Virus record (IMG/VR): IMGVR_UViG_3300033153_006865
Span: 1,035-65,034 of that record
DNA length: 64,000 bases
Direction: 5' to 3' (one strand)
Source of the DNA: a virus
Taxonomy: Duplodnaviria; Heunggongvirae; Uroviricota; Caudoviricetes
In this document: piece by piece, positions 1,114-38,286 of the stretch
How positions within the stretch are numbered: position 1 is the first letter of the stretch
Layout: the number at the start of each line of letters is the position of its first letter
Made by a program: the position numbers and the translations under genes
Notes under the pieces: model-generated
The model's input: only the letters and a program-made list of their open reading frames with translations
The model's database searches: none
Told to the model about the DNA's origin: nothing

Positions 1114-1479
1114 ATGAAAAAATTTGTTACAATACTTCTGGTACTTATTGGGTCTATATCATTTGGACAAGTGAATATGGATGTTATTATTGAGTCTGGA
1201 GATACTATAGTCCACAAGGATTTAATAATGTTGGCTCCACGCCTTGATACATCTTCAAATGTTTTAACAATGGAACATTTCTTTGAGGGCGGTTCAACAA
1301 TTACTGCTAAGTACTCGTTAAAAAACGAAGCCGAGGTAGGGGAATCTTTAGTCTTACTAGCTGAGAATAGTACAGGTAACTTGGTATACATTATAATCAG
1401 CAGTAATGGAAAGGCGATAAGAGTTGCAGCTCCAGATATGTCGTATGTCCAATACAATGGAAAAGGCATCATTTGGTAA
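1114..1479 (+). CDS. secreted hypothetical protein
   Basis: N-terminal signal peptide MKKFVTILLVLIGSISFGQ. Confidence 0.5.
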   Translation: MKKFVTILLVLIGSISFGQVNMDVIIESGDTIVHKDLIMLAPRLDTSSNVLTMEHFFEGGSTITAKYSLKNEAEVGESLVLLAENSTGNLVYIIISSNGKAIRVAAPDMSYVQYNGKGIIW

Positions 1480-1501
1480 TATAATTCTAATTAAGGACCA
1501 A

Positions 1502-2035
1502 ATGGAATCTAAGAAAAAGTTGAATAGAATTGGTAGGATAATGACCTACCTTCTACGACACAACCCAAAACAAGGACAACTGGATATGTCAAACCAAGGA
1601 TGGGTTCCGGTATCCCAACTTAAGAAGTCATTAAAGATAAATCAAGATGACCTAGATTATATTGTTTCAAACGATAATAATGGCAGATTTTCATTTTACT
1701 CAAACAGGGGAATGGTACGAGCAAATCAAGGTCACAGCCTCCCCTTTGTAAAAATAAAGTATGATAAGTTTCTCCCAACGGGACCTTTGTATCATGGGAC
1801 TGCAACAAAAAATATTAGCCCTATCCTACGGGGCGGTATTGAAAAGTTGAATCGTACACATGTACATTTATCTCATGATAGGGAGACAGCCACTACTGTG
1901 GGTAGTAGACATGGAGCTCCACTAACCTTGAAGATAGATGCAGTACAAATGCACAAAGACGGGGTTGAGATTTTTATCAGCGAAAACAATGTTGTTTTAA
2001 CAGAGTATGTTGATCCAAAATATATTGTACTATAA
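1502..2035 (+). CDS. RNA 2'-phosphotransferase Tpt1/KptA family
   Basis: Motifs RIGRIMTYLLRHNP...GWVPV, RANQGHS and HGT...VHLS match the KptA/Tpt1 family. Start taken at the internal ATG 1502 to avoid overlap with the upstream gene. Confidence 0.75.
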   Translation: MESKKKLNRIGRIMTYLLRHNPKQGQLDMSNQGWVPVSQLKKSLKINQDDLDYIVSNDNNGRFSFYSNRGMVRANQGHSLPFVKIKYDKFLPTGPLYHGTATKNISPILRGGIEKLNRTHVHLSHDRETATTVGSRHGAPLTLKIDAVQMHKDGVEIFISENNVVLTEYVDPKYIVL

Positions 2036-2048
2036 AAAACACGAAACT

Positions 2049-2156
2049 ATGAGTTACCAAAAATGTCCAATTTGTTGTGGGTCAGGGAGGGAGAGTATAA
2101 TAAATGGGGGCTCAGTTCCATGCCCAACCTGTAACGGCTCGTCAATAATAGATTAG
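2049..2156 (+). CDS. small zinc-ribbon protein (35 aa, below ORF-track cutoff)
   Basis: MSYQKCPICCGSGRE...PCPTCNG with two CxxC pairs; fills an intergenic gap. Confidence 0.3.
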   Translation: MSYQKCPICCGSGRESIINGGSVPCPTCNGSSIID

Positions 2157-2194
2157 GTAAAGATCTACTTAAAATAAGTAGAGGTGGATTTTCA

Positions 2195-2326
2195 ATGACA
2201 GGGACTTACGCTGAGCTGGTCCAATATTTTAAAACTACAGGATACGAAAAGGTAAGGGTTTCCACTATTGTAAATGCAGTAACAAGAAAAATAAATATTT
2301 ATAAACATAAAATAGAAAAACTATGA
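2195..2326 (+). CDS. hypothetical small protein (43 aa)
   Basis: ORF whose stop overlaps the start of the next gene (ATGA). Confidence 0.25.
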   Translation: MTGTYAELVQYFKTTGYEKVRVSTIVNAVTRKINIYKHKIEKL

Positions 2327-3138
2327 GTCGTTATTTCCTGGATACAGAGTTCCATGAATATCCTAAGAAAAGGCTATTCGGAAAAGCAATTAATACTATA
2401 GATCTCATTTCTATTGGAATGGTGTCTGAAGATGGACGTGAATACTATGCCATCTCAAAAGACTTTAACCTAAAGGATGCTTGGAATAGCTGGCAACCAA
2501 AATCACAAAGAGTTAGTGATACTAATTTCATCACAATTAAAGAATATTGGCTTAGAGAGAATGTGCTGTTGCCAGTATTGAAAGATTTAATGAACCTAGA
2601 GCACATTGATATGTTTGGCACCCCCATTATGGAGTGGGAATGGGAGACTATTGATACATCAATAAAAGGGATGAGCTATAGATATTTAAAAAGGTTACTG
2701 AAAAAATACGGTAAATCAAACAAAGAAATAGCTGAAGAGATAATTAAATTCACGGAGCCCAGATTAACAGGAAAAGTATTGTTAGTTGATCCTCCGATAA
2801 ACGAATATGACAACACCCCTATTGAATTCTATGCTTATTACGCTGACTATGACTGGGTGGTATTTTGCTGGCTATTTGGTAGGATGATTGATCTTCCGGA
2901 CGGTTTCCCGATGTATTGCAAAGACCTGAAACAGATTTCTGATGAGGTCTATGAAGAGAAGAAAAAGTCTTACTATGGTAACTCTAAGGAACAGGCAATA
3001 AAACATTCTGGAGTATTTTTAAATAAGATGAGCGACCATTTAGATTATCCCAGACAACAAAACGAACATAACGCATTGGATGATGCCAAATGGGATTTTG
3101 AATTATATAAATTTTTAACCGGAATAAAAACAAGATGA
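2323..3138 (+). CDS. DEDDh-family 3'-5' exonuclease
   Basis: Exo I YFLDTEF, Exo II YYADYDWVVF, Exo III HNALDDA (H-x4-D). Confidence 0.7.
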   Translation: MSRYFLDTEFHEYPKKRLFGKAINTIDLISIGMVSEDGREYYAISKDFNLKDAWNSWQPKSQRVSDTNFITIKEYWLRENVLLPVLKDLMNLEHIDMFGTPIMEWEWETIDTSIKGMSYRYLKRLLKKYGKSNKEIAEEIIKFTEPRLTGKVLLVDPPINEYDNTPIEFYAYYADYDWVVFCWLFGRMIDLPDGFPMYCKDLKQISDEVYEEKKKSYYGNSKEQAIKHSGVFLNKMSDHLDYPRQQNEHNALDDAKWDFELYKFLTGIKTR

Positions 3139-3332
3139 AATTGAGAAGATTGTGGATAGAGTTTCTACTTTGGAGACTGTCAAACCAGTACACCCAATTG
3201 GATATCGACCTTGTGTGTGGAACACGTGGGATGAGTAAGTCATTAGACTACTCGGCCTACAAAGTCAGAAAAGATAAACTGAGTAAGAAACATATCATTT
3301 TATTAGAACGTTTAAAAGATCTCCAACAATAA
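3135..3332 (+). CDS. hypothetical protein
   Basis: 65-aa ORF, start and stop overlap neighbouring genes. Confidence 0.3.
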   Translation: MKLRRLWIEFLLWRLSNQYTQLDIDLVCGTRGMSKSLDYSAYKVRKDKLSKKHIILLERLKDLQQ

Positions 3333-3844
3333 TGGAAAATAAATATTACACACCGGAGGAAGAAGAATTCCATGTAGGACTTGAGTACGAATATAGACAT
3401 ATTCTATGGTTGGTGACGGCAACCATAACGAAACACCCCTTTTATAATGATGACCGATGTGTTGAGCATGGCGAGTTAAAACAAAAAGATGGACTTAGGA
3501 CTTTCTATGCTTGGATAACTCAAACGTTTACCGAGAGGGGTGTTTTAAATAAAGGGGAATATCGAGTTAAACGCCTCGACAGAGAAGATATAGAGAGTTT
3601 GGGGTGGGAGTGCATTGAAACTGAAAAATCTCCATTCACACATAATTTACTACATAAATTCTACAAGAACAAGGAAGAAGGATTTAATACAGGTTCAAAT
3701 TACTACATAGACTTAATGGATTCAAATATAGTAAAAATTACTATAGATATCTACGGTGAGTATGGCACTACCATCCAGCTAATGGAATTCATTATCAAGA
3801 ATAAATCCGAACTTAAACGTATCCTCAAACAAATAGGAATATGA
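3332..3844 (+). CDS. hypothetical protein
   Basis: 170-aa ORF in an operon-like array. Confidence 0.45.
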   Translation: MENKYYTPEEEEFHVGLEYEYRHILWLVTATITKHPFYNDDRCVEHGELKQKDGLRTFYAWITQTFTERGVLNKGEYRVKRLDREDIESLGWECIETEKSPFTHNLLHKFYKNKEEGFNTGSNYYIDLMDSNIVKITIDIYGEYGTTIQLMEFIIKNKSELKRILKQIGI

Positions 3845-6933: not shown

Positions 6934-7431
6934 TCAATATGACATGAAGTAATCACCCATTTCAATCTCTACTTCGGTTCTTCTGTCCTGGGCCTGCTGT
7001 AAAGTATCAAACACTTCTCGTATTACATTTTTTATGCGTAGAGTATATCTACTCCCTCTTTTCTCAATGCAATAAGTACCATCTTTGAATCTATCAGTAT
7101 CCTTCAGCCTATTGAGTCTGTGGGATATAATTTGGGAATTCACTAATCTGTTGTCTTCCTTAATTTTATTTATATGATCGGTAACATACCGTCTACCATC
7201 TGGATGAGACCTATGTGGGAGAAACGTGTTTGTAACCATATTATGGATAAACATATATCCCTTATGGGTATCAACTGTTTTATACCCATCCTTATGTACT
7301 CTTCCAACTAAATATCTCCCAGTAGATATATTCTTAATCCTACCTAAAGTACTTACTAGGTATACATTATCTAGCTTTGGTACAAAATCCCATTCTTCCA
7401 TAATGTAAATATAAGGATTATTTTTAAGCAC
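6934..7431 (-). CDS. HNH homing endonuclease (NUMOD4/HNH_3-type, I-HmuI-like)
   Basis: WDFVP..YLVSTLGRIKN..TGR...GY..V-H..V...F....V.HIN.IK.DN...N; opposite strand to neighbours. Confidence 0.7.
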   Translation of the reverse strand: MLKNNPYIYIMEEWDFVPKLDNVYLVSTLGRIKNISTGRYLVGRVHKDGYKTVDTHKGYMFIHNMVTNTFLPHRSHPDGRRYVTDHINKIKEDNRLVNSQIISHRLNRLKDTDRFKDGTYCIEKRGSRYTLRIKNVIREVFDTLQQAQDRRTEVEIEMGDYFMSY

Positions 7432-8778
7432 TCTTATTTATTTTACAAATATCCCGTGTAAAAATAAGAAATTGGGCTGTTTCTATGCTGTTTGGACAGT
7501 TTATATGTTGGGGAGATATATGTCTGTAACCCTTACTACTATTGGGCTGTATAAATTATATGCAAATAATTAGCAAGTATGAAAGTGAGATTGGGTGAAT
7601 TTTTATATGTTTAGTACCACCTACACCCAAACTCCCCCACCCTATTAGAGTTTTGCCCCAACCCCCTATACATTTGAAAAACCAACTTTTCAAAATTTCA
7701 TCCTACAAAACGGAACCACCTATTTTAGTATTTATATTTTATACTCTCTTAATATCTATATACTACCCATAAAGTATCTGAATACTAACCTATCTACTAC
7801 ACACACATAACTATAAAACTACCTACTATTTATGTACATATATACTATAATAATATATTAAATTTAATTTAATTGCGTTTTTATATTGTTTATCCAACTA
7901 ATTGTTGTATATTAGCATAAGCGAATGAGGGGAACGTCCCTATTAACATTTACTAAGTTCTTTTTATATTTTTACCCAATAAGCAAATAGCATACTAGGA
8001 CACAATAGACCAGTCGTCCCCATTGTGAGGACGTGAAATTAATGGTTTGGAAATCGACAAAGCTTTACAGTGTTGAGGGTAAAAATATTAAAAGATTATT
8101 TTAATTCTATACCGTTTTAATTAGGTTTATTGAATTAAAAGAATTATATTTACATAAGCGTTACAAAGGTAACCATTTAGTAAAATTGACATAGGGATAA
8201 CAATATTTTTTTAATAATAACTTGCAAATTATTTGCAGTTCTTATTTATTTTCCTTATATTTGTTAAGAGTTACAAAGGTGGCTTTAATAACATTAGTTC
8301 ATTGACATACCGATTAATCACTTAAGTAGTGACGGGATTAACATTAATACTTTAAGCTTTATTAATATGGGTGCAACGCTCATTTAAGTTTGACGAACTT
8401 ACGAAATGTAAGTTATTATATTAATGCCTTTCTTTATACGGTGGTTCTATTCCTTGAAAGGTCAATTAAGAGTCGTAAGGCTTGAAAGTTGGGGGTTTGG
8501 TTAAGTGTGGCGTAATGTCCAAGGTTTGATAATAAAGAACTGATAGGTAGCCAGGGGTTGAATTCCCTTCATTAGACGTATAGAGAAGACTATACGCAAC
8601 AAAATTATATAATCTGTGCCCTTGTAGTGGTGCTAAAGGATTGAAAGCAAAACTACAAAGCTTTATTGAACGTCATGTTTAATAAAGCCCTAAGTCGTTA
8701 GACAGAATAATATTTGGCAAAGTGTCAAAATCCGTATAGGGTTGAACAAAGAAAATTTTACAAATTAATATAATTGTT
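7432..8778. other. 1.35 kb ORF-free structured region (candidate origin, early-promoter hub or large ncRNA)
   Basis: No ORF of 60 aa or more on either strand. C-rich tracts 7620..7670, extreme AT tract 7700..7900, many local hairpins 7920..8720, repeated GTTACAAAGGT...TTGACATA modules. Confidence 0.5.
8187..8225 (+). promoter_or_regulatory. sigma70-like promoter candidate
   Basis: TTGACA, 17-nt spacer, T/A-rich -10; preceded by GTTACAAAGGT at 8160. A second copy sits at 8271 (GTTACAAAGGT) and 8304 (TTGACA). Confidence 0.3.
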
Positions 8779-9186
8779 ATGAAAAATTCTAAAAATAGTG
8801 CATCGAACGAAAATAAATTAACTGGGCAACAAAAATTAGAGCTTAGAATAGCTAATTTAAAAGAAAGGTCTAAGAAAGAGGGGCTAAACCTTAATGAAAC
8901 TAAGATATTAGCCAATGCTGAGGAAAAAATTGACTGTAAGAGTGCAAGTCGTGTATATAAAGTAATGGACGCTTTGAATAAAACTAAAAAGGGATCTTTA
9001 TTGGGTGGTTCTAAGTTCCCTAGCTTCAAAACGTTCAAAGGATTGCTACCAGAGGGTAAAACATTGTTTAGTGCATGGGATGGGTTCGGAGTTTTGGTAA
9101 AATGTAACAAAAAGGCTGCTATGAAGTCGAAAGTAGACGCTCAAGGCGGTGTTATAGTGGGGAATAATGAATTATTATCTGCATAG
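8779..9186 (+). CDS. hypothetical protein (first gene after the ORF-free region)
   Basis: 135-aa Lys-rich ORF. Confidence 0.5.
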   Translation: MKNSKNSASNENKLTGQQKLELRIANLKERSKKEGLNLNETKILANAEEKIDCKSASRVYKVMDALNKTKKGSLLGGSKFPSFKTFKGLLPEGKTLFSAWDGFGVLVKCNKKAAMKSKVDAQGGVIVGNNELLSA

Positions 9187-9241: not shown

Positions 9242-9801
9242 AAATTACCGTTAAAATAGTAATGTTTTAAAATGTATAAGACTATATTAATCGCTTGTAT
9301 AATGGTAATATTGTTACTAAGGTTTTTAGTCAGGAATTTAAAACAAATAAAAATAATCAAATCACATTCTTATTTTAAATGGCAATATAAGAGTGTATAA
9401 ACCCATACGATTTAGTTAGTGTTTACCTATTAGTATAAGTATGTCTTATAGGTAAAGAATGAACTTTGGTTTAATCAAGGATGGATCTTACTTGCCGCTA
9501 AATTTGTTAAAACTTTTATTATGTTAGATATACAAATATTTTTAAGCTTCCCTTTAAAGTATAACAAGGGAGTTATCTTAAGAGGGCATTTTATTGTCTT
9601 TACGAACACAGAAATTCTTGCTGGATTGAATTAATAGTTCCCCATTCGCTTAAGACGTGGTATTCAATTACAAATTTGGGCAAAGGCGTTACGCCACATT
9701 TAAGTCGATGGGGGACTATAACCCTACGTTTTAACAACTCAAAATCTATTCGTCTAGTTGTTGAGTTCAACGGCTATTAGCCATCATTAAATATTATTGT
9801 T

Positions 9802-10507: not shown

Positions 10508-10514
10508 AGAAATT

Positions 10515-10574
10515 CGCAGTCACGGTTGCAAATAGTAATAAGCTATTTGGGTGGTTCGAATCCACCGATTGCGA
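10515..10574 (+). ncRNA. tRNA-like element lacking a D-arm (acceptor stem + hairpin + canonical T-arm)
   Basis: Acceptor CGCAGTC pairs 7/7 (one G-U) with GATTGCG. T-arm GGTGG-TTCGAAT-CCACC. Internal 7-bp hairpin CAAATAG-TAATAAG-CTATTTG. Discriminator A. Only 60 nt. Confidence 0.4.
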
Positions 10575-10610
10575 CTAACAGGCGTTATGCCAACTAAAAC
10601 CAAAAAACAA

Positions 10611-10985
10611 ATGAGAAATTTATTATTAGTTATTGCAGTTATTTTTACCGTAGGAATCTGTCACTCACAAGGTGTGTATGAAGTAGATACAAGTTATGTA
10701 GCAACTGAAAACTATTCCTATAAACCCAGTATCAAATTAATTGATGCAACTCTTATTTCAGACAGATTGGATGAAAATAGAATTTGTTTACAGGAGTTGA
10801 AAGATACATTTAATAATCTTTCCTACTATGCTAAGTTATCCAGTGTCCAAAAAATAAAGCTGAATAAAAGAGTTGATTCTTATAAAAAGTGGGAGTCAAA
10901 GACAGATCTAAGTATAGAAAGTAATTATTCCTACGCATATAATTATCTTGATGACTCCATTGACTTAATGAAATCTTACAAGTAA
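10611..10985 (+). CDS. secreted hypothetical protein
   Basis: Signal peptide MRNLLLVIAVIFTVGICHSQ. The ORF track extends upstream to 10551 over the tRNA-like element, so the start is ambiguous (10587 or 10611). Confidence 0.5.
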   Translation: MRNLLLVIAVIFTVGICHSQGVYEVDTSYVATENYSYKPSIKLIDATLISDRLDENRICLQELKDTFNNLSYYAKLSSVQKIKLNKRVDSYKKWESKTDLSIESNYSYAYNYLDDSIDLMKSYK

Positions 10986-12604: not shown

Positions 12605-13351
12605 ATGGAGTATTTAGAACAAGCAAAAAGTTTTTTAGAAACTACGAACACAACGTTTAAGGCAGAATATTTAGAACACGGTCTTCATTTCGAAGGTGAC
12701 AAAGAAAAAAGAGCTATTTACAAGATAACACTTTCAAATAAAGAAGGTGAGTTTTGTTTTGATTTTGGGCAAAGTATAGAGGACAGCTTTAAAAAAGAAA
12801 TGGGACCACAAAGGGATATATTGGAGACTATAAATGTTTATGCGGGGCTAGAGACAGCTTCTTCTTCATGTGGTCATTCCTTTAAGCTTAAAAAAGAGGA
12901 GGGGTTTAATCTTAGTGATGTCCGTTTTCAGGAATTAGCTTCTGATTTAGAAACAGAATACTACAGAAAAATAAGTAATAGGAATGAAAAATTACTTGAA
13001 AAGTTTAATAAAGGTGAAATTAGTCGTAATCTAATGAACGCAAAAAAAGACGGAGGAAATCTCGGATCTGGTGCTTTTACCCAATGCATTCAAAATGCAA
13101 TTAAAAGAGAATTAAACAAAGAAGTTGAAACAGCTGGTGAGTTCTTGCAAATTACACCGACTGAGTATGACGTACTCACTTGTTTAACTAAGTATGATCC
13201 AGAAACGTTTGAAGACTTTTGTAGTGAGTTTGGATATGATGAAGACAGTAGAAAGGCTGAAAAGATATACAAAGCAGTTGTAAACGAATACAATAATGTT
13301 GCGATGCTGTGGAATGACTCAGAAATTGAATTGTTAAGTGAGATACAATAA
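12605..13351 (+). CDS. hypothetical protein
   Basis: 248-aa ORF. Confidence 0.5.
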   Translation: MEYLEQAKSFLETTNTTFKAEYLEHGLHFEGDKEKRAIYKITLSNKEGEFCFDFGQSIEDSFKKEMGPQRDILETINVYAGLETASSSCGHSFKLKKEEGFNLSDVRFQELASDLETEYYRKISNRNEKLLEKFNKGEISRNLMNAKKDGGNLGSGAFTQCIQNAIKRELNKEVETAGEFLQITPTEYDVLTCLTKYDPETFEDFCSEFGYDEDSRKAEKIYKAVVNEYNNVAMLWNDSEIELLSEIQ

Positions 13352-13432
13352 CAGTCGTTTGAGCGACTCAAAACTTCATTAAGCTCAAAGCGTCCCACTT
13401 AGGTGGGGGTTGAACCATTAATAATCACTATC

Positions 13433-37198: not shown

Positions 37199-38286
37199 TG
37201 GCTAGGAAAAAGACACATAAAGAATTTGTAGACCAACTAAGGGAGGTTCAACCTAATCTGACTGTTATAGGAGAGTATGCCAAGGATAGTAAAAAATTAC
37301 TTGTTAAAGATCATCTTGGGATAAGATACTCAACCTCTCCATCTAATCTATTACAGGGTAATAAGCCCTCTGCTGTGTTAGCGGTAGACAAAGACAATTG
37401 GTTTAGAGTAAGAAGTAAACAAATTCACGGAGAATCTTATGATCACTCTAGATCAAAATACTTAGGAGACTCTGTTAAAGTAGAGATTATCTGTCTAAGA
37501 CATGGGTCTTTTTGGCAGACTCCTGCATCACATCTAAAAGGTAGGGGATGTATGGAATGTGGGCATGTAGCTACAGCTAAAAGTAAAAGAAAAACTACAG
37601 ATGAGTTTATTTTAGAGGCGGAGAATATTCATCAGGGAGTCTATGACTACTCTAAGTCACAATATATTAACTCAAAGACAAAAATAAATATAATTTGTCC
37701 CAGTCACGGAGTATTTACACAGGTTCCAAACGATCACCTAAATGGTCACGGGTGCACTTCGTGCGCCTATGCGTCAAATAGTAAGACAACAGAACAATTT
37801 ATATACAAGGCGAATAAAATACATAAGGGTACATACTCCTACTATGATACTGTGTACACTTCATCTGCCTCTGAAGTAGTTATAACTTGTAAAATACATG
37901 GGGCTTTTAAACAAAAACCAAAGGTGCACCTAGAAGGACATGGGTGTAAGAAATGCGCCTCATACAACCATCCTGGATCCTATGCGTCTGTATGTAAATA
38001 TACCCCTGACCATTTGGTACCATTGTACATAATTAAATGTTCCTACAAGGACGAAGTTTTTTACAAAATTGGGCTGTCAATTGACTGTAGGACCAGATTT
38101 TATGGGATACCTTATGAAATAGAACTCCTTAAAATCATTGAAGGTCCTATAGGTAGGACCTATCCATTAGAGCAATCTCTAAAAAAGAAATACGCAATAT
38201 ATAAATATATACCTCAAAAGTATTTTGGTGGGTACACAGAGTGCTTTTCAGTAAACCCACTAAAATACTTTAAAGAATTAAAATAA
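37198..38286 (+). CDS. T5orf172 (GIY-YIG-like) endonuclease with triplicated zinc-ribbon repeats
   Basis: Three HG.F.Q.P..HL.G.GC..C repeats, then C-terminal YIIKC..YKIGLSID...E......F.GGYTECF T5orf172 signature. Paralog of 53758..54855. Confidence 0.7.
   Translation: MARKKTHKEFVDQLREVQPNLTVIGEYAKDSKKLLVKDHLGIRYSTSPSNLLQGNKPSAVLAVDKDNWFRVRSKQIHGESYDHSRSKYLGDSVKVEIICLRHGSFWQTPASHLKGRGCMECGHVATAKSKRKTTDEFILEAENIHQGVYDYSKSQYINSKTKINIICPSHGVFTQVPNDHLNGHGCTSCAYASNSKTTEQFIYKANKIHKGTYSYYDTVYTSSASEVVITCKIHGAFKQKPKVHLEGHGCKKCASYNHPGSYASVCKYTPDHLVPLYIIKCSYKDEVFYKIGLSIDCRTRFYGIPYEIELLKIIEGPIGRTYPLEQSLKKKYAIYKYIPQKYFGGYTECFSVNPLKYFKELK

Follow-up and report, generated by a model that had tools for sequence, protein, structure and literature searches.

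The minihelix formed by the acceptor and T stems, together with the elbow of the tRNA, represents the unit recognised by RNase P, RNase Z, and the CCA-adding enzyme, and CCA acts as an anti-determinant of RNase Z. The t-elements of plant mitochondria do not decode and are substrates of both RNase P and RNase Z; mascRNA, embedded in the eukaryotic, nuclear MALAT1 transcript, is a tRNA-like fold of about 60 nt that is excised by the same two enzymes and given CCA. The metazoan mitochondrial tRNA-Ser(AGY) is a D-arm-less tRNA that decodes; its anticodon arm is a true one, with a 5-bp stem and a U33-containing loop of 7 nt, and it also has a variable region. G3.U70 is the alanine identity pair. 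In phage T7, the RNase III sites are structured RNAs lying between cistrons and giving defined mRNA ends. Plant mitochondrial t-elements are reported to contribute to both 5' and 3' mRNA end formation (PMC1920247), and another study deals with the mitochondrial tRNA punctuation model (PMC3790967). Furthermore, the bacterial Y RNA (YrlA), which is also found in phages, mimics the T arm, the D loop, and the acceptor region of tRNA (PMC4201824), and a survey deals with phage tRNA-like candidates in generic terms only (PMC10690425).

The locus considered in the present work belongs to a 64-kb stretch of DNA (the window, that is, the whole stretch that was analysed), which represents half of the genome, about 130 kb long, of an uncultured phage recovered from JGI metagenome 3300033148, with a GC content of about 36% and long co-directional gene blocks. 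Between two of its genes lies a compact element, the parts of which are listed in Table 1. The first-pass annotation of this DNA had described a tRNA-like element with an acceptor stem and a canonical T arm but no D stem, and this description is borne out by the sequence and by the MFE fold.

Structure and genomic context of the element

Table 1. Parts of the tRNA-like element and the two genes flanking it, with their positions in the window.
Feature	Position	Strand	Basis
Upstream co-oriented ORF, 77 aa	10274..10507	+	Homologues in other phages
Acceptor-like stem, 5' strand CGCAGUC, 7 bp	10514..10521	+	Sequence; MFE fold; R2 acceptor-helix alignment with all pairs formed
Single-stranded 7-nt linker ACGGUUG	10522..10528	+	Unpaired in the MFE fold; relatives have AAUGGUU or AACGGUU here
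Hairpin CAAAUAG/CUAUUUG, loop UAAUAAG, adjoining the T stem	10529..10549	+	Fold; Rfam alignment; covariation in relatives
Canonical T arm GGUGG-UUCGAAU-CCACC	10550..10566	+	Sequence
Acceptor-like stem, 3' strand GAUUGCG, plus A10574 (discriminator or eighth pair)	10567..10574	+	Sequence; fold; R2
3' tail A-CUAA, of the family-typical form N-C-(not C)-A; CCA not encoded	10574..10578	+	Family tail statistics; R2 consensus end CUaa
Downstream co-oriented ORF (orphan), signal-peptide-like N terminus	10587..10985	+	In-frame ATG at 10587 or 10611

The two strands of the acceptor-like stem (CGCAGTC, 10515-10521, and GATTGCG, 10567-10573) form seven out of seven pairs, G5.U68 being the single G.U, and U10514-A10574 is a possible eighth pair. 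The T stem is stacked directly on the 3' acceptor strand, with a gap of 0 nt between it and the preceding hairpin, to which RNAfold adds a closing U.G pair, resulting in 8 bp and a 5-nt loop (AAUAA). The MFE structure is exactly the three-way junction of acceptor, hairpin, and T arm (-23.5 kcal/mol, 84% of the ensemble); the z-score of the fold is -4.2, and none of 200 shuffled sequences folded as well. As modelled, the element is an anticodon-less mimic of the top half of a tRNA, with a coaxial acceptor/T stack of about 12-13 bp and a GG linker replacing the D arm. This linker resembles either a D loop or the linker of the tmRNA tRNA-like domain (TLD), and its GG could establish a tertiary contact with the T loop.

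The T-arm pattern has one match in the 64-kb window, at 10550..10566. A descriptor made of the T arm and an abutting acceptor stem with seven out of seven pairs occurs 0.14 times per shuffled 64-kb window, and 0.04 times when an inner hairpin of at least 6 bp is added; taken alone, without the evidence from its family, the structure is just moderately improbable. A chance origin is removed because the element belongs to a covarying family, as revealed by the R2 match, the relatives, and the covariation reported below.

The element shares with canonical tRNAs a 7-bp acceptor stem stacked on a 5-bp T stem and a T loop of the type UUCRANY. As a canonical tRNA it was rejected: it has no D stem, its hairpin loop UAAUAAG has an A at position 33, and both ARAGORN and Rfam were negative. 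The relaxed and organellar ARAGORN modes that had been recommended as a check did not return this layout and gave other, badly paired models (-mt, -mtx, and -mtd proposed a TV-loop "mtRNA-Ser" in a different register, at 10522-10586). Likewise, the suggested Infernal comparison with tRNA models remained sub-threshold: nothing in Rfam 15 scored above its gathering threshold at the element, and the best tRNA-clan match was tRNA-Sec (18.5 bits vs. a gathering threshold of 47, with E = 0.3 over 301 nt), in whose alignment the D and anticodon arms are deleted and the hairpin is placed on the variable arm. The idea of a "D-arm-less tRNA", with the hairpin as its anticodon arm, does not hold, given the lack of a variable region, this placement by Rfam, and the loops of the relatives, which have neither U33 nor R37. 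Since the hairpin abuts the T stem, U33 and R37 are absent, and most relatives possess no hairpin, the element is anticodon-less and not merely D-arm-less. The first-pass annotation had also stated that the element should be given up if no small RNA was detected, no host tRNA 3' half matched, and covariance models scored below noise; dismissing it by this rule would have been wrong. The hairpin was also considered as an intrinsic terminator, and this was discarded in that no U tract follows it.

The element is intergenic; it starts 7 nt past the upstream stop (10507) and ends 12 nt before the ATG at 10587, and it lies on the same (+) strand as both ORFs. The public JGI gene call for the downstream ORF uses a GTG start at 10551 and runs through the T arm. 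Judging from the sequence, this call is probably (we would say almost certainly) wrong, the real start being downstream of the RNA, because a signal-peptide-like N terminus follows the in-frame ATGs found at 10587 and at 10611. Of the two options that had been considered for this ORF, the later start is the right one.

A Bacteroidota-type promoter motif has 12 matches in the window vs. 4.4 expected, and the host of the phage is probably a member of the Bacteroidota. One of these matches (8232-8263) is located upstream of the gene block of the element, and no terminator-like site was found between the two, which suggests co-transcription. The search for tRNA or tmRNA genes in the whole 64-kb window (ARAGORN, default) retrieved none. 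Moreover, the phage harbors RNA-repair-type genes, that is, Tpt1/KptA (1424-2035), two Rv2179c-like 3'-5' exoribonucleases, and a protein with an ATP-dependent DNA ligase domain. The only above-threshold Rfam match in the window is a Pistol self-cleaving ribozyme (13353-13414, 61.5 bits), which follows a stop codon at a distance of 2 nt and is separated from the next called start by about 18 nt. It is placed 2.8 kb downstream of the element, within the same gene block and in an equivalent slot between genes.

Probing the 50,697 GenBank phage records with the 5-kb region around the element did not retrieve any relative at the level of DNA similarity, and an apparent IMG/VR relative (L001) was rejected as spurious, being GC-rich and unrelated. 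No homologues of the downstream ORF were found. The upstream 77-aa gene has homologues sharing 62-76% identity in ten loci; the element is absent from all ten, and no other neighbour is held in common. An analysis of covariation based on orthologues was therefore impossible, because the downstream gene is an orphan and the homologues of the upstream one are embedded in mosaics lacking the element. In one of these relatives, a tRNA-Arg unrelated in sequence to the element lies 2 kb away.

A widespread family of short tRNA-like elements in phages

The T-arm pattern TGGGTGGTTCGAWTCCAC was found at 29 loci in viral contigs, about eight of which are true tRNAs. Many of the other loci are short and ARAGORN-negative, and show an acceptor stem followed by a GG linker (AAUGGUU, ACGGUUG, or CUGGAUUC) and then by the T arm. 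Copies with different T arms share loci: four are clustered in 2.6 kb of L026, where at least two strict copies are present vs. 0.008 expected from shuffles, and two flank one ORF in L041, one on either side; no phage related to L026 was found. A scan of viral contigs with AATGGTT-N5-11-GGTTCGATTCC yielded at least 120 loci, and among the matches listed an acceptor stem of at least 5 bp exactly flanks the motif in 104 out of 128, the chance rate for such stems being estimated at no more than about 13% over the registers tried. These short elements (minis) have a length of 38-46 nt and are composed of an acceptor stem, a D-loop-like AAUGGUU or AACGGUU, and a T arm, with a linker that is nearly always 10 nt long. 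The lengths of T stem and acceptor trade off in such a way that the coaxial stack is held at 11-13 bp, and four to six pair types are found at every stem position (among the matches listed). The seed elements derive from fixed-motif searches followed by a filter on base pairing, and all the family counts are lower bounds; alignments were performed on subsets of equal geometry, MAFFT having misaligned the 5' strands of mixed lengths.

As for their position, an upstream same-strand ORF ends between -10 and +20 nt from the start of the mini in 43 out of 89 cases (92 unique elements examined, among the matches listed), and an opposite-strand ORF is equally near in four out of 80 (again among the matches listed); in many members, the stop codon and the acceptor stem share nucleotides. 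The tail is of the form N-C/U-(not C)-A, with C74 and A76 preferred (92 members). Since C at position 75 occurs in just two of the 92 members among the matches listed, an encoded CCA is avoided by the minis. One of the L041 copies precedes a terminator, the elements of Cellulophaga phage Calle and L033 follow one, and L091 contains a tandem array of near-identical copies. Most members of the family have no hairpin. The Rfam search on mini-containing loci gave no family at threshold; the best sub-threshold match was tmRNA with its 328-nt body deleted, which corresponds to the tRNA-like domain (19-20 vs. 47 bits), and the segment cuGGaUUC of the tmRNA model was aligned onto the linker of the relatives.

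The hairpin-bearing subclass emerged from the scan AATGGTT-N14-27-GGTTCGATTCC, in which 40 of the 108 matches listed are ordinary tRNAs. At least 14 distinct elements share the order acceptor, linker of 7-9 nt with AAUGGUU, hairpin at the T stem or a few nt from it, T arm, and acceptor. The nearest one listed is L186/L193, from an unrelated phage with a GC content of 30%, and reads UAGCAAUA AAUGGUU AACUAUG-AAUAAG-CAUAGUU ACAGG-UUCGAUU-CCUGU UAUUGCUA CUAA; it has in common with the window's element an 8-bp acceptor of similar sequence, the 7-nt linker, the 7-bp hairpin, the AAUAAG loop, and the CUAA tail. The acceptor signature N-G-Y-A-R-U / A-U-U-G-C is common to the copies of the window, L186, and Calle.

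A covariance model (R2) was built from five hairpin elements of unrelated contigs (L186, L200, L276, L282, and L207), none of which had been picked by similarity to the window. On the 64-kb window (both strands, filters off) it retrieved 10514-10578 with 29.4 bits, 19 out of 19 pairs formed, and an E-value of about 1.7e-6, which is rough owing to the shortened calibration. This is the only R2 match below E = 1 in the 64 kb, the next one scoring 10.3 bits. The same model recovered 135 elements from 100 other loci, many of which harbor two to seven copies, all lying on the same strand within a locus; true tRNAs score no higher than 22 bits. In L087 the order is ORF-mini-ORF-mini, four of the six minis begin 8-16 nt past the preceding stop, and five of the six copies possess the linker AACGGUU, similar to the ACGGUUG of the window. 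According to a model-fitted alignment of 21 elements, including that of the window (A8), 92.8% of the cells are paired vs. 42-48% in slid controls, and both sides have changed in 17 of the 19 pairs, comprising all seven pairs of the hairpin.

The window's element fits the traits of the subclass, that is, the GG linker after the acceptor, the ACUA tail, the intergenic and co-oriented position, and the short distance behind a stop. A second model (R1), representing hairpin-less 45-nt AAUGGUU minis, did not include the element among its matches in the window with E up to 10, because the 21-nt insertion and the ACGGUUG/UUCGAAU differences are too costly for a narrow model; membership thus rests on the hairpin subclass. 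The element is a hairpin-bearing member of a widespread phage family of mini tRNA-like elements, and its structure, family membership, covariation, and genomic placement are established by these analyses. Across the family, the helices, the T loop, and the GG linker are under selection.

Probing phage records with a 71-nt query of the element (blastn) retrieved mostly the T arms of real tRNAs, together with a look-alike of Cellulophaga phages Calle and phi38:1. The copy of Calle_1, a cultured phage, is unannotated and has the same layout as the window's element. The phi38:1 copy is decaying, with nine of 62 positions changed, no compensatory change, and 14.4 vs. 29.8 bits, which implies that individual copies can be dispensable. 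Look-alikes are also found inside phage tRNA clusters (L024, L031, and Calle). A metagenome scan for ACGGTTG..TGGGTGGTTCGAWTCC matched only the contig of L044 and did not return the window's own contig. A genome scan for ACGGTT..GGTTCGAWTCC..CTAA listed 120 matches, 111 of which are ordinary tRNA-Met, tRNA-Gln, or tRNA-Arg with ACGGTT in the anticodon arm; the pattern was badly designed, and the scan is uninformative on minis in cellular genomes.

Candidate roles of the element

Of the three roles proposed in the first-pass annotation, that of a processing signal for RNase P and RNase Z agrees best with the data, which comprise the intergenic, co-oriented, and post-stop position of the element, the operon-punctuating placement of its relatives, the avoidance of CCA, and the parallel offered by the Pistol ribozyme. 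We consider that the element is a functional RNA, a member of its family, whose most likely mechanism is the punctuation of a polycistronic message, and we give this interpretation about even chances. By analogy with known tRNA processing, transcription, the enzymes involved, and the effect on gene expression would most likely be as follows. The element would be transcribed within a polycistronic + strand message, and the tRNA end-maturation enzymes of the host would recognise the acceptor/T stack and the elbow. RNase P would cut the 5' side, an RNase Z-type enzyme would cut after the discriminator, and the CCA-adding enzyme may then act. In this way, the cistrons would be uncoupled, tRNA-like or defined mRNA ends would be generated, and an RNA of about 60 nt would be released.

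Punctuation by enzymatic cleavage is favoured because the acceptor/T stack with the elbow is a known recognition unit and because CCA blocks RNase Z. Since, in the many relatives whose acceptor stem overlaps the stop codon, an RNase P cut at the 5' side would truncate that codon, a role at the 3' end (3' processing or cap) fits better than 5' cleavage. The window contains one copy; the best examples of punctuation among the relatives contain several.

A different possibility is that the released RNA works in trans as a mimic of tRNA or TLD. It would then either engage, as a ligand or decoy, a protein binding the elbow and the acceptor end of tRNA (the candidates being SmpB, EF-Tu, the CCA-adding enzyme, tRNA-modifying enzymes, and host defence toxins that target tRNA) or be aminoacylated by a synthetase that ignores the anticodon. 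The best Rfam likeness of the minis, linker and ACNA tail included, is indeed the tRNA-like domain of tmRNA, and the window's element reproduces the whole TLD topology, its hairpin resembling P2. The acceptor signature shared by the window, L186, and Calle hints at sequence-specific recognition, and the RNA-repair-type genes of the phage, as well as the near-identical tandem copies of L091, would be in agreement with an action in trans; however, G3.U70 is absent from the element and generally from the family, the free variation of the stems argues against one partner reading the sequence across the whole family, and no binding partner is encoded beside the element. The systematic placement of one element per gene, right after the stops, points to a role in cis, and we regard the action in trans as unlikely. 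The element might also work in cis uncleaved, as a 3'-UTR or inter-cistronic fold that blocks 3' exonucleases or couples or insulates translation, with no involvement of tRNA enzymes. This is in line with the stop-codon overlap common in the family, owing to which ribosomes must unfold the elements, and with the adjacency to terminators (before one in L041, after one in Calle and L033). A plain hairpin would suffice for such a task, though, and the conservation of the exact T loop and of the GG linker, together with a stack held at 11-13 bp and an avoided CCA, indicates recognition as a tRNA; this scenario appears rather improbable.

Whether the element is a non-functional relic of a tRNA or tmRNA gene that has lost the D stem and the anticodon arm has to be considered in the light of the look-alikes found within phage tRNA clusters, the degenerating phi38:1 copy, and the tRNA-Arg close to one homologue of the upstream gene. 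That tRNA-Arg is unrelated in sequence, though, and the 64-kb window is devoid of tRNA genes; moreover, none of the 19 pairs is broken, and unrelated phages show this non-tRNA architecture again, with compensatory changes. The decay of a tRNA gene, as put forward in the first-pass annotation, is at odds with these findings, and we judge a relic very improbable. An attP core, or a tRNA 3' half duplicated by site-specific integration, was suggested by the T arm and the 3' acceptor strand, which resemble the usual attachment core. The exact 25-mer of the 3' half did not match in any of 185,579 species genomes, nor did the 26-mer in the viral contigs of IMG/VR; the element does have its 5' acceptor strand, and the 63 larger ORFs of the window did not include any integrase family. 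These data speak against the proposed attP or 3'-half remnant. A chance structure could be invoked on the basis of the descriptor alone (0.04-0.14 occurrences per shuffled window), and it is contradicted by the independent model R2, which scores the element at E of about 2e-6. Integration remnant or chance together seem extremely improbable.

Returning to the punctuation of messages, a broader proposal, to which we give somewhat less than even confidence, is that phage operons are punctuated by a large unrecognised class of 38-65-nt anticodon-less tRNA/TLD mimics (one to seven copies per gene block), which would hand messages to the RNase P, RNase Z, and CCA-adding enzyme of the host; the released CCA-tailed minis may be ligands or decoys for elbow- or TLD-binding proteins, e.g., SmpB. 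If true, many phages would use a compact tRNA mimic as a general punctuation of their messages. RNase III sites and self-cleaving ribozymes would be joined by a third type of signal for processing between phage cistrons, and the principle of tRNA punctuation would extend from organelles to bacterial viruses. It would, in turn, account for recurrent "orphan" T-arm matches and mis-called ORF starts in phage annotation, and would put at hand a module of 40-60 nt with which RNA processing could be programmed in bacteria. With a floating junction, a stack of 11-13 bp, and no D stem, the members of the family would also form a putative set of naturally minimised substrates for RNase P, RNase Z, and the CCA-adding enzyme.

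Comparison with described systems

While tRNA-like processing signals are already known, a compact, D-stem-less, anticodon-less, and abundant phage family appears to be undescribed within the literature searched: as far as the searchable literature reaches, no description of it was found in Rfam 15 or in the full texts searched.

The element shares with plant mitochondrial t-elements and with tRNA punctuation the occurrence of tRNA-like structures in longer transcripts adjoining protein genes and the proposed processing of mRNA by tRNA enzymes. It differs from the t-elements in belonging to phage operons, where processing is putative, and in having a canonical T loop, a D-loop-like linker, and a large covarying family. 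Similarly, mascRNA is a tRNA-like fold of about 60 nt inside a long transcript; its fold, however, is still a cloverleaf that includes a small anticodon-like arm, and it shows no sequence kinship to the phage element. The D-arm-less mitochondrial tRNAs have a small size and a short loop replacing the D arm, as the element does; in contrast to their anticodon arm, the hairpin of the window abuts the T stem, shows an A at "position 33", and is missing in the majority of the relatives.

Unlike the element, the tRNA-mimicking module of YrlA is carried on a Ro60-binding stem and is encoded beside rsr (PMC4201824); a YrlA/Ro RNA was rejected on the basis that the Rfam search gave no YrlA match at E up to 10 and that no TROVE/Ro family was found among the ORFs of the window. 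The RNase III sites of T7 and the Pistol ribozyme are, like the element, structured RNAs between phage cistrons, and rely on another enzyme or chemistry and on an unrelated fold.

The tRNA-like domain of tmRNA (RF00023, and the permuted RF04321) shows the same succession of parts, i.e., a 5' acceptor strand, a GG linker in place of the D arm, a helix on the 5' side of the T arm (represented by P2 in tmRNA and by the 8-bp hairpin in the element), a UUCGAxU T arm, and a 3' acceptor strand, and the Rfam model aligns family members end to end once its 328-nt body is deleted. On the other hand, the element has neither a tag reading frame nor pseudoknots, it has a 21-nt hairpin instead of the body, and the ARAGORN tmRNA search was negative. 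It also lacks G3.U70, its tail is CUA and not CCA, and its relatives score 19-20 bits against a gathering threshold of 47; furthermore, such elements are located between protein genes, often in several copies. The element appears to be a member of none of these known systems; judged by analogy, the closest ones in function would be plant mitochondrial t-elements, tRNA punctuation, and mascRNA, and the closest in shape would be the tmRNA TLD.

Similar elements in cultured phages and the probable host

Unannotated tRNA-like elements were found in two flavobacterial phages in culture, Cellulophaga phage Calle_1 and phi38:1 (Table); both share the architecture of the window element and are sited near the tRNA cluster of the respective phage. 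The phi38:1 copy carries nine changes in 62 nt, including T54 to C, none of which is compensatory, and the annotated ORF gp055 reads through it. The window itself contains 12 sites matching the Bacteroidota-type promoter motif TTTG-N17-23-TAnnTTTG, versus 4.4 expected, and no obvious Shine-Dalgarno sequence was seen at the gene starts that were read (10274 and 10587/10611). The window phage probably has a Bacteroidota host.

Coordinates of the features in the window and in the other viral loci (L handles; rc, reverse-complement coordinates)
Feature	Locus	Position	Strand	Detail
RNA 2'-phosphotransferase, Tpt1/KptA family	window	1424-2035	+	E = 3.7e-41
Rv2179c-like 3'-5' exoribonuclease	window	2323-3138	+	
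ORF with NUMOD4 motif	window	6934-7431	-	homing-endonuclease type
Promoter motif match, one of 12	window	8232-8263	+	
Pistol self-cleaving ribozyme, RF02679	window	13353-13414	+	Rfam, 61.5 bits (gathering threshold 34.5)
Pistol ribozyme	L040	8015-8089	-	59.5 bits
T-arm-containing structure	L040	7528-7545	-	about 105 nt
Intergenic structure, distant relative of window phage	L038	8626-8766	+	141 nt
Seven model R2 matches	L091	928-1779	-	spacing about 150-200 nt
Four minis	L026	rc 1135-3737	-	
Model R2 match	L134	rc 9369-9440	-	72 nt; GUGGAGC UAUGGUA ... CGGGCGGUUCGAUUCCCCCGGCUCCAC CAG
tRNA-like element, Calle_1	L005	1466-1527		MT732432.1, about 37292-37353
tRNA-like element, phi38:1	L007	1473-1538		

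Pistol ribozymes and RNA-repair-type genes

The Pistol ribozyme of the window, flanked by the ORF 12605-13351 and by the next one (start about 13433), and the tRNA-like element occupy an equivalent position, immediately 3' of a stop codon. In a second viral contig (L040), a structure containing a T arm, with imperfect acceptor pairing, lies about 470 nt downstream of a Pistol ribozyme on the same strand.

The window phage also harbors an RNA-repair-type gene set, consisting of the Tpt1/KptA gene (adjoining DHFR), two genes for Rv2179c-like proteins, the second of them elsewhere in the window, and a further gene, again elsewhere, whose product has an ATP-dependent DNA ligase domain. The NUMOD4 ORF is the lone minus-strand ORF within a plus-strand gene block, and is followed by about 1.3 kb (7431-8779) with little coding potential.

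Repeated and composite forms in other loci

The matches to model R2 (the covariance model built from hairpin-bearing relatives) in L091 represent a repeat array, not one element per gene: of the six matches that were read, out of seven, one has diverged and five are near-identical copies, with acceptor GCGAGCY and T stem GCAGG. In L026 the mini forms part of a cassette that recurs between cistrons and also comprises a hairpin and a leader; downstream of all three minis (of four) whose 3' flank was read, there is a small hairpin together with the conserved leader ACACAAACAAACA..AAGGAGA..ATG. The L134 match, sitting among ordinary minis, may be either a tRNA of unusual form or a family member with a long insert.

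Lastly, the L038 structure is closed by an 8-bp acceptor stem (CGCUAAGA/UCUUAGCG) and has a 3' T arm identical to that of the window element. A second T-arm module, further inside, matches the terminal parts of the Rfam tmRNA model (17.4 bits), and the whole resembles a tRNA-like RNA of nested or composite design.
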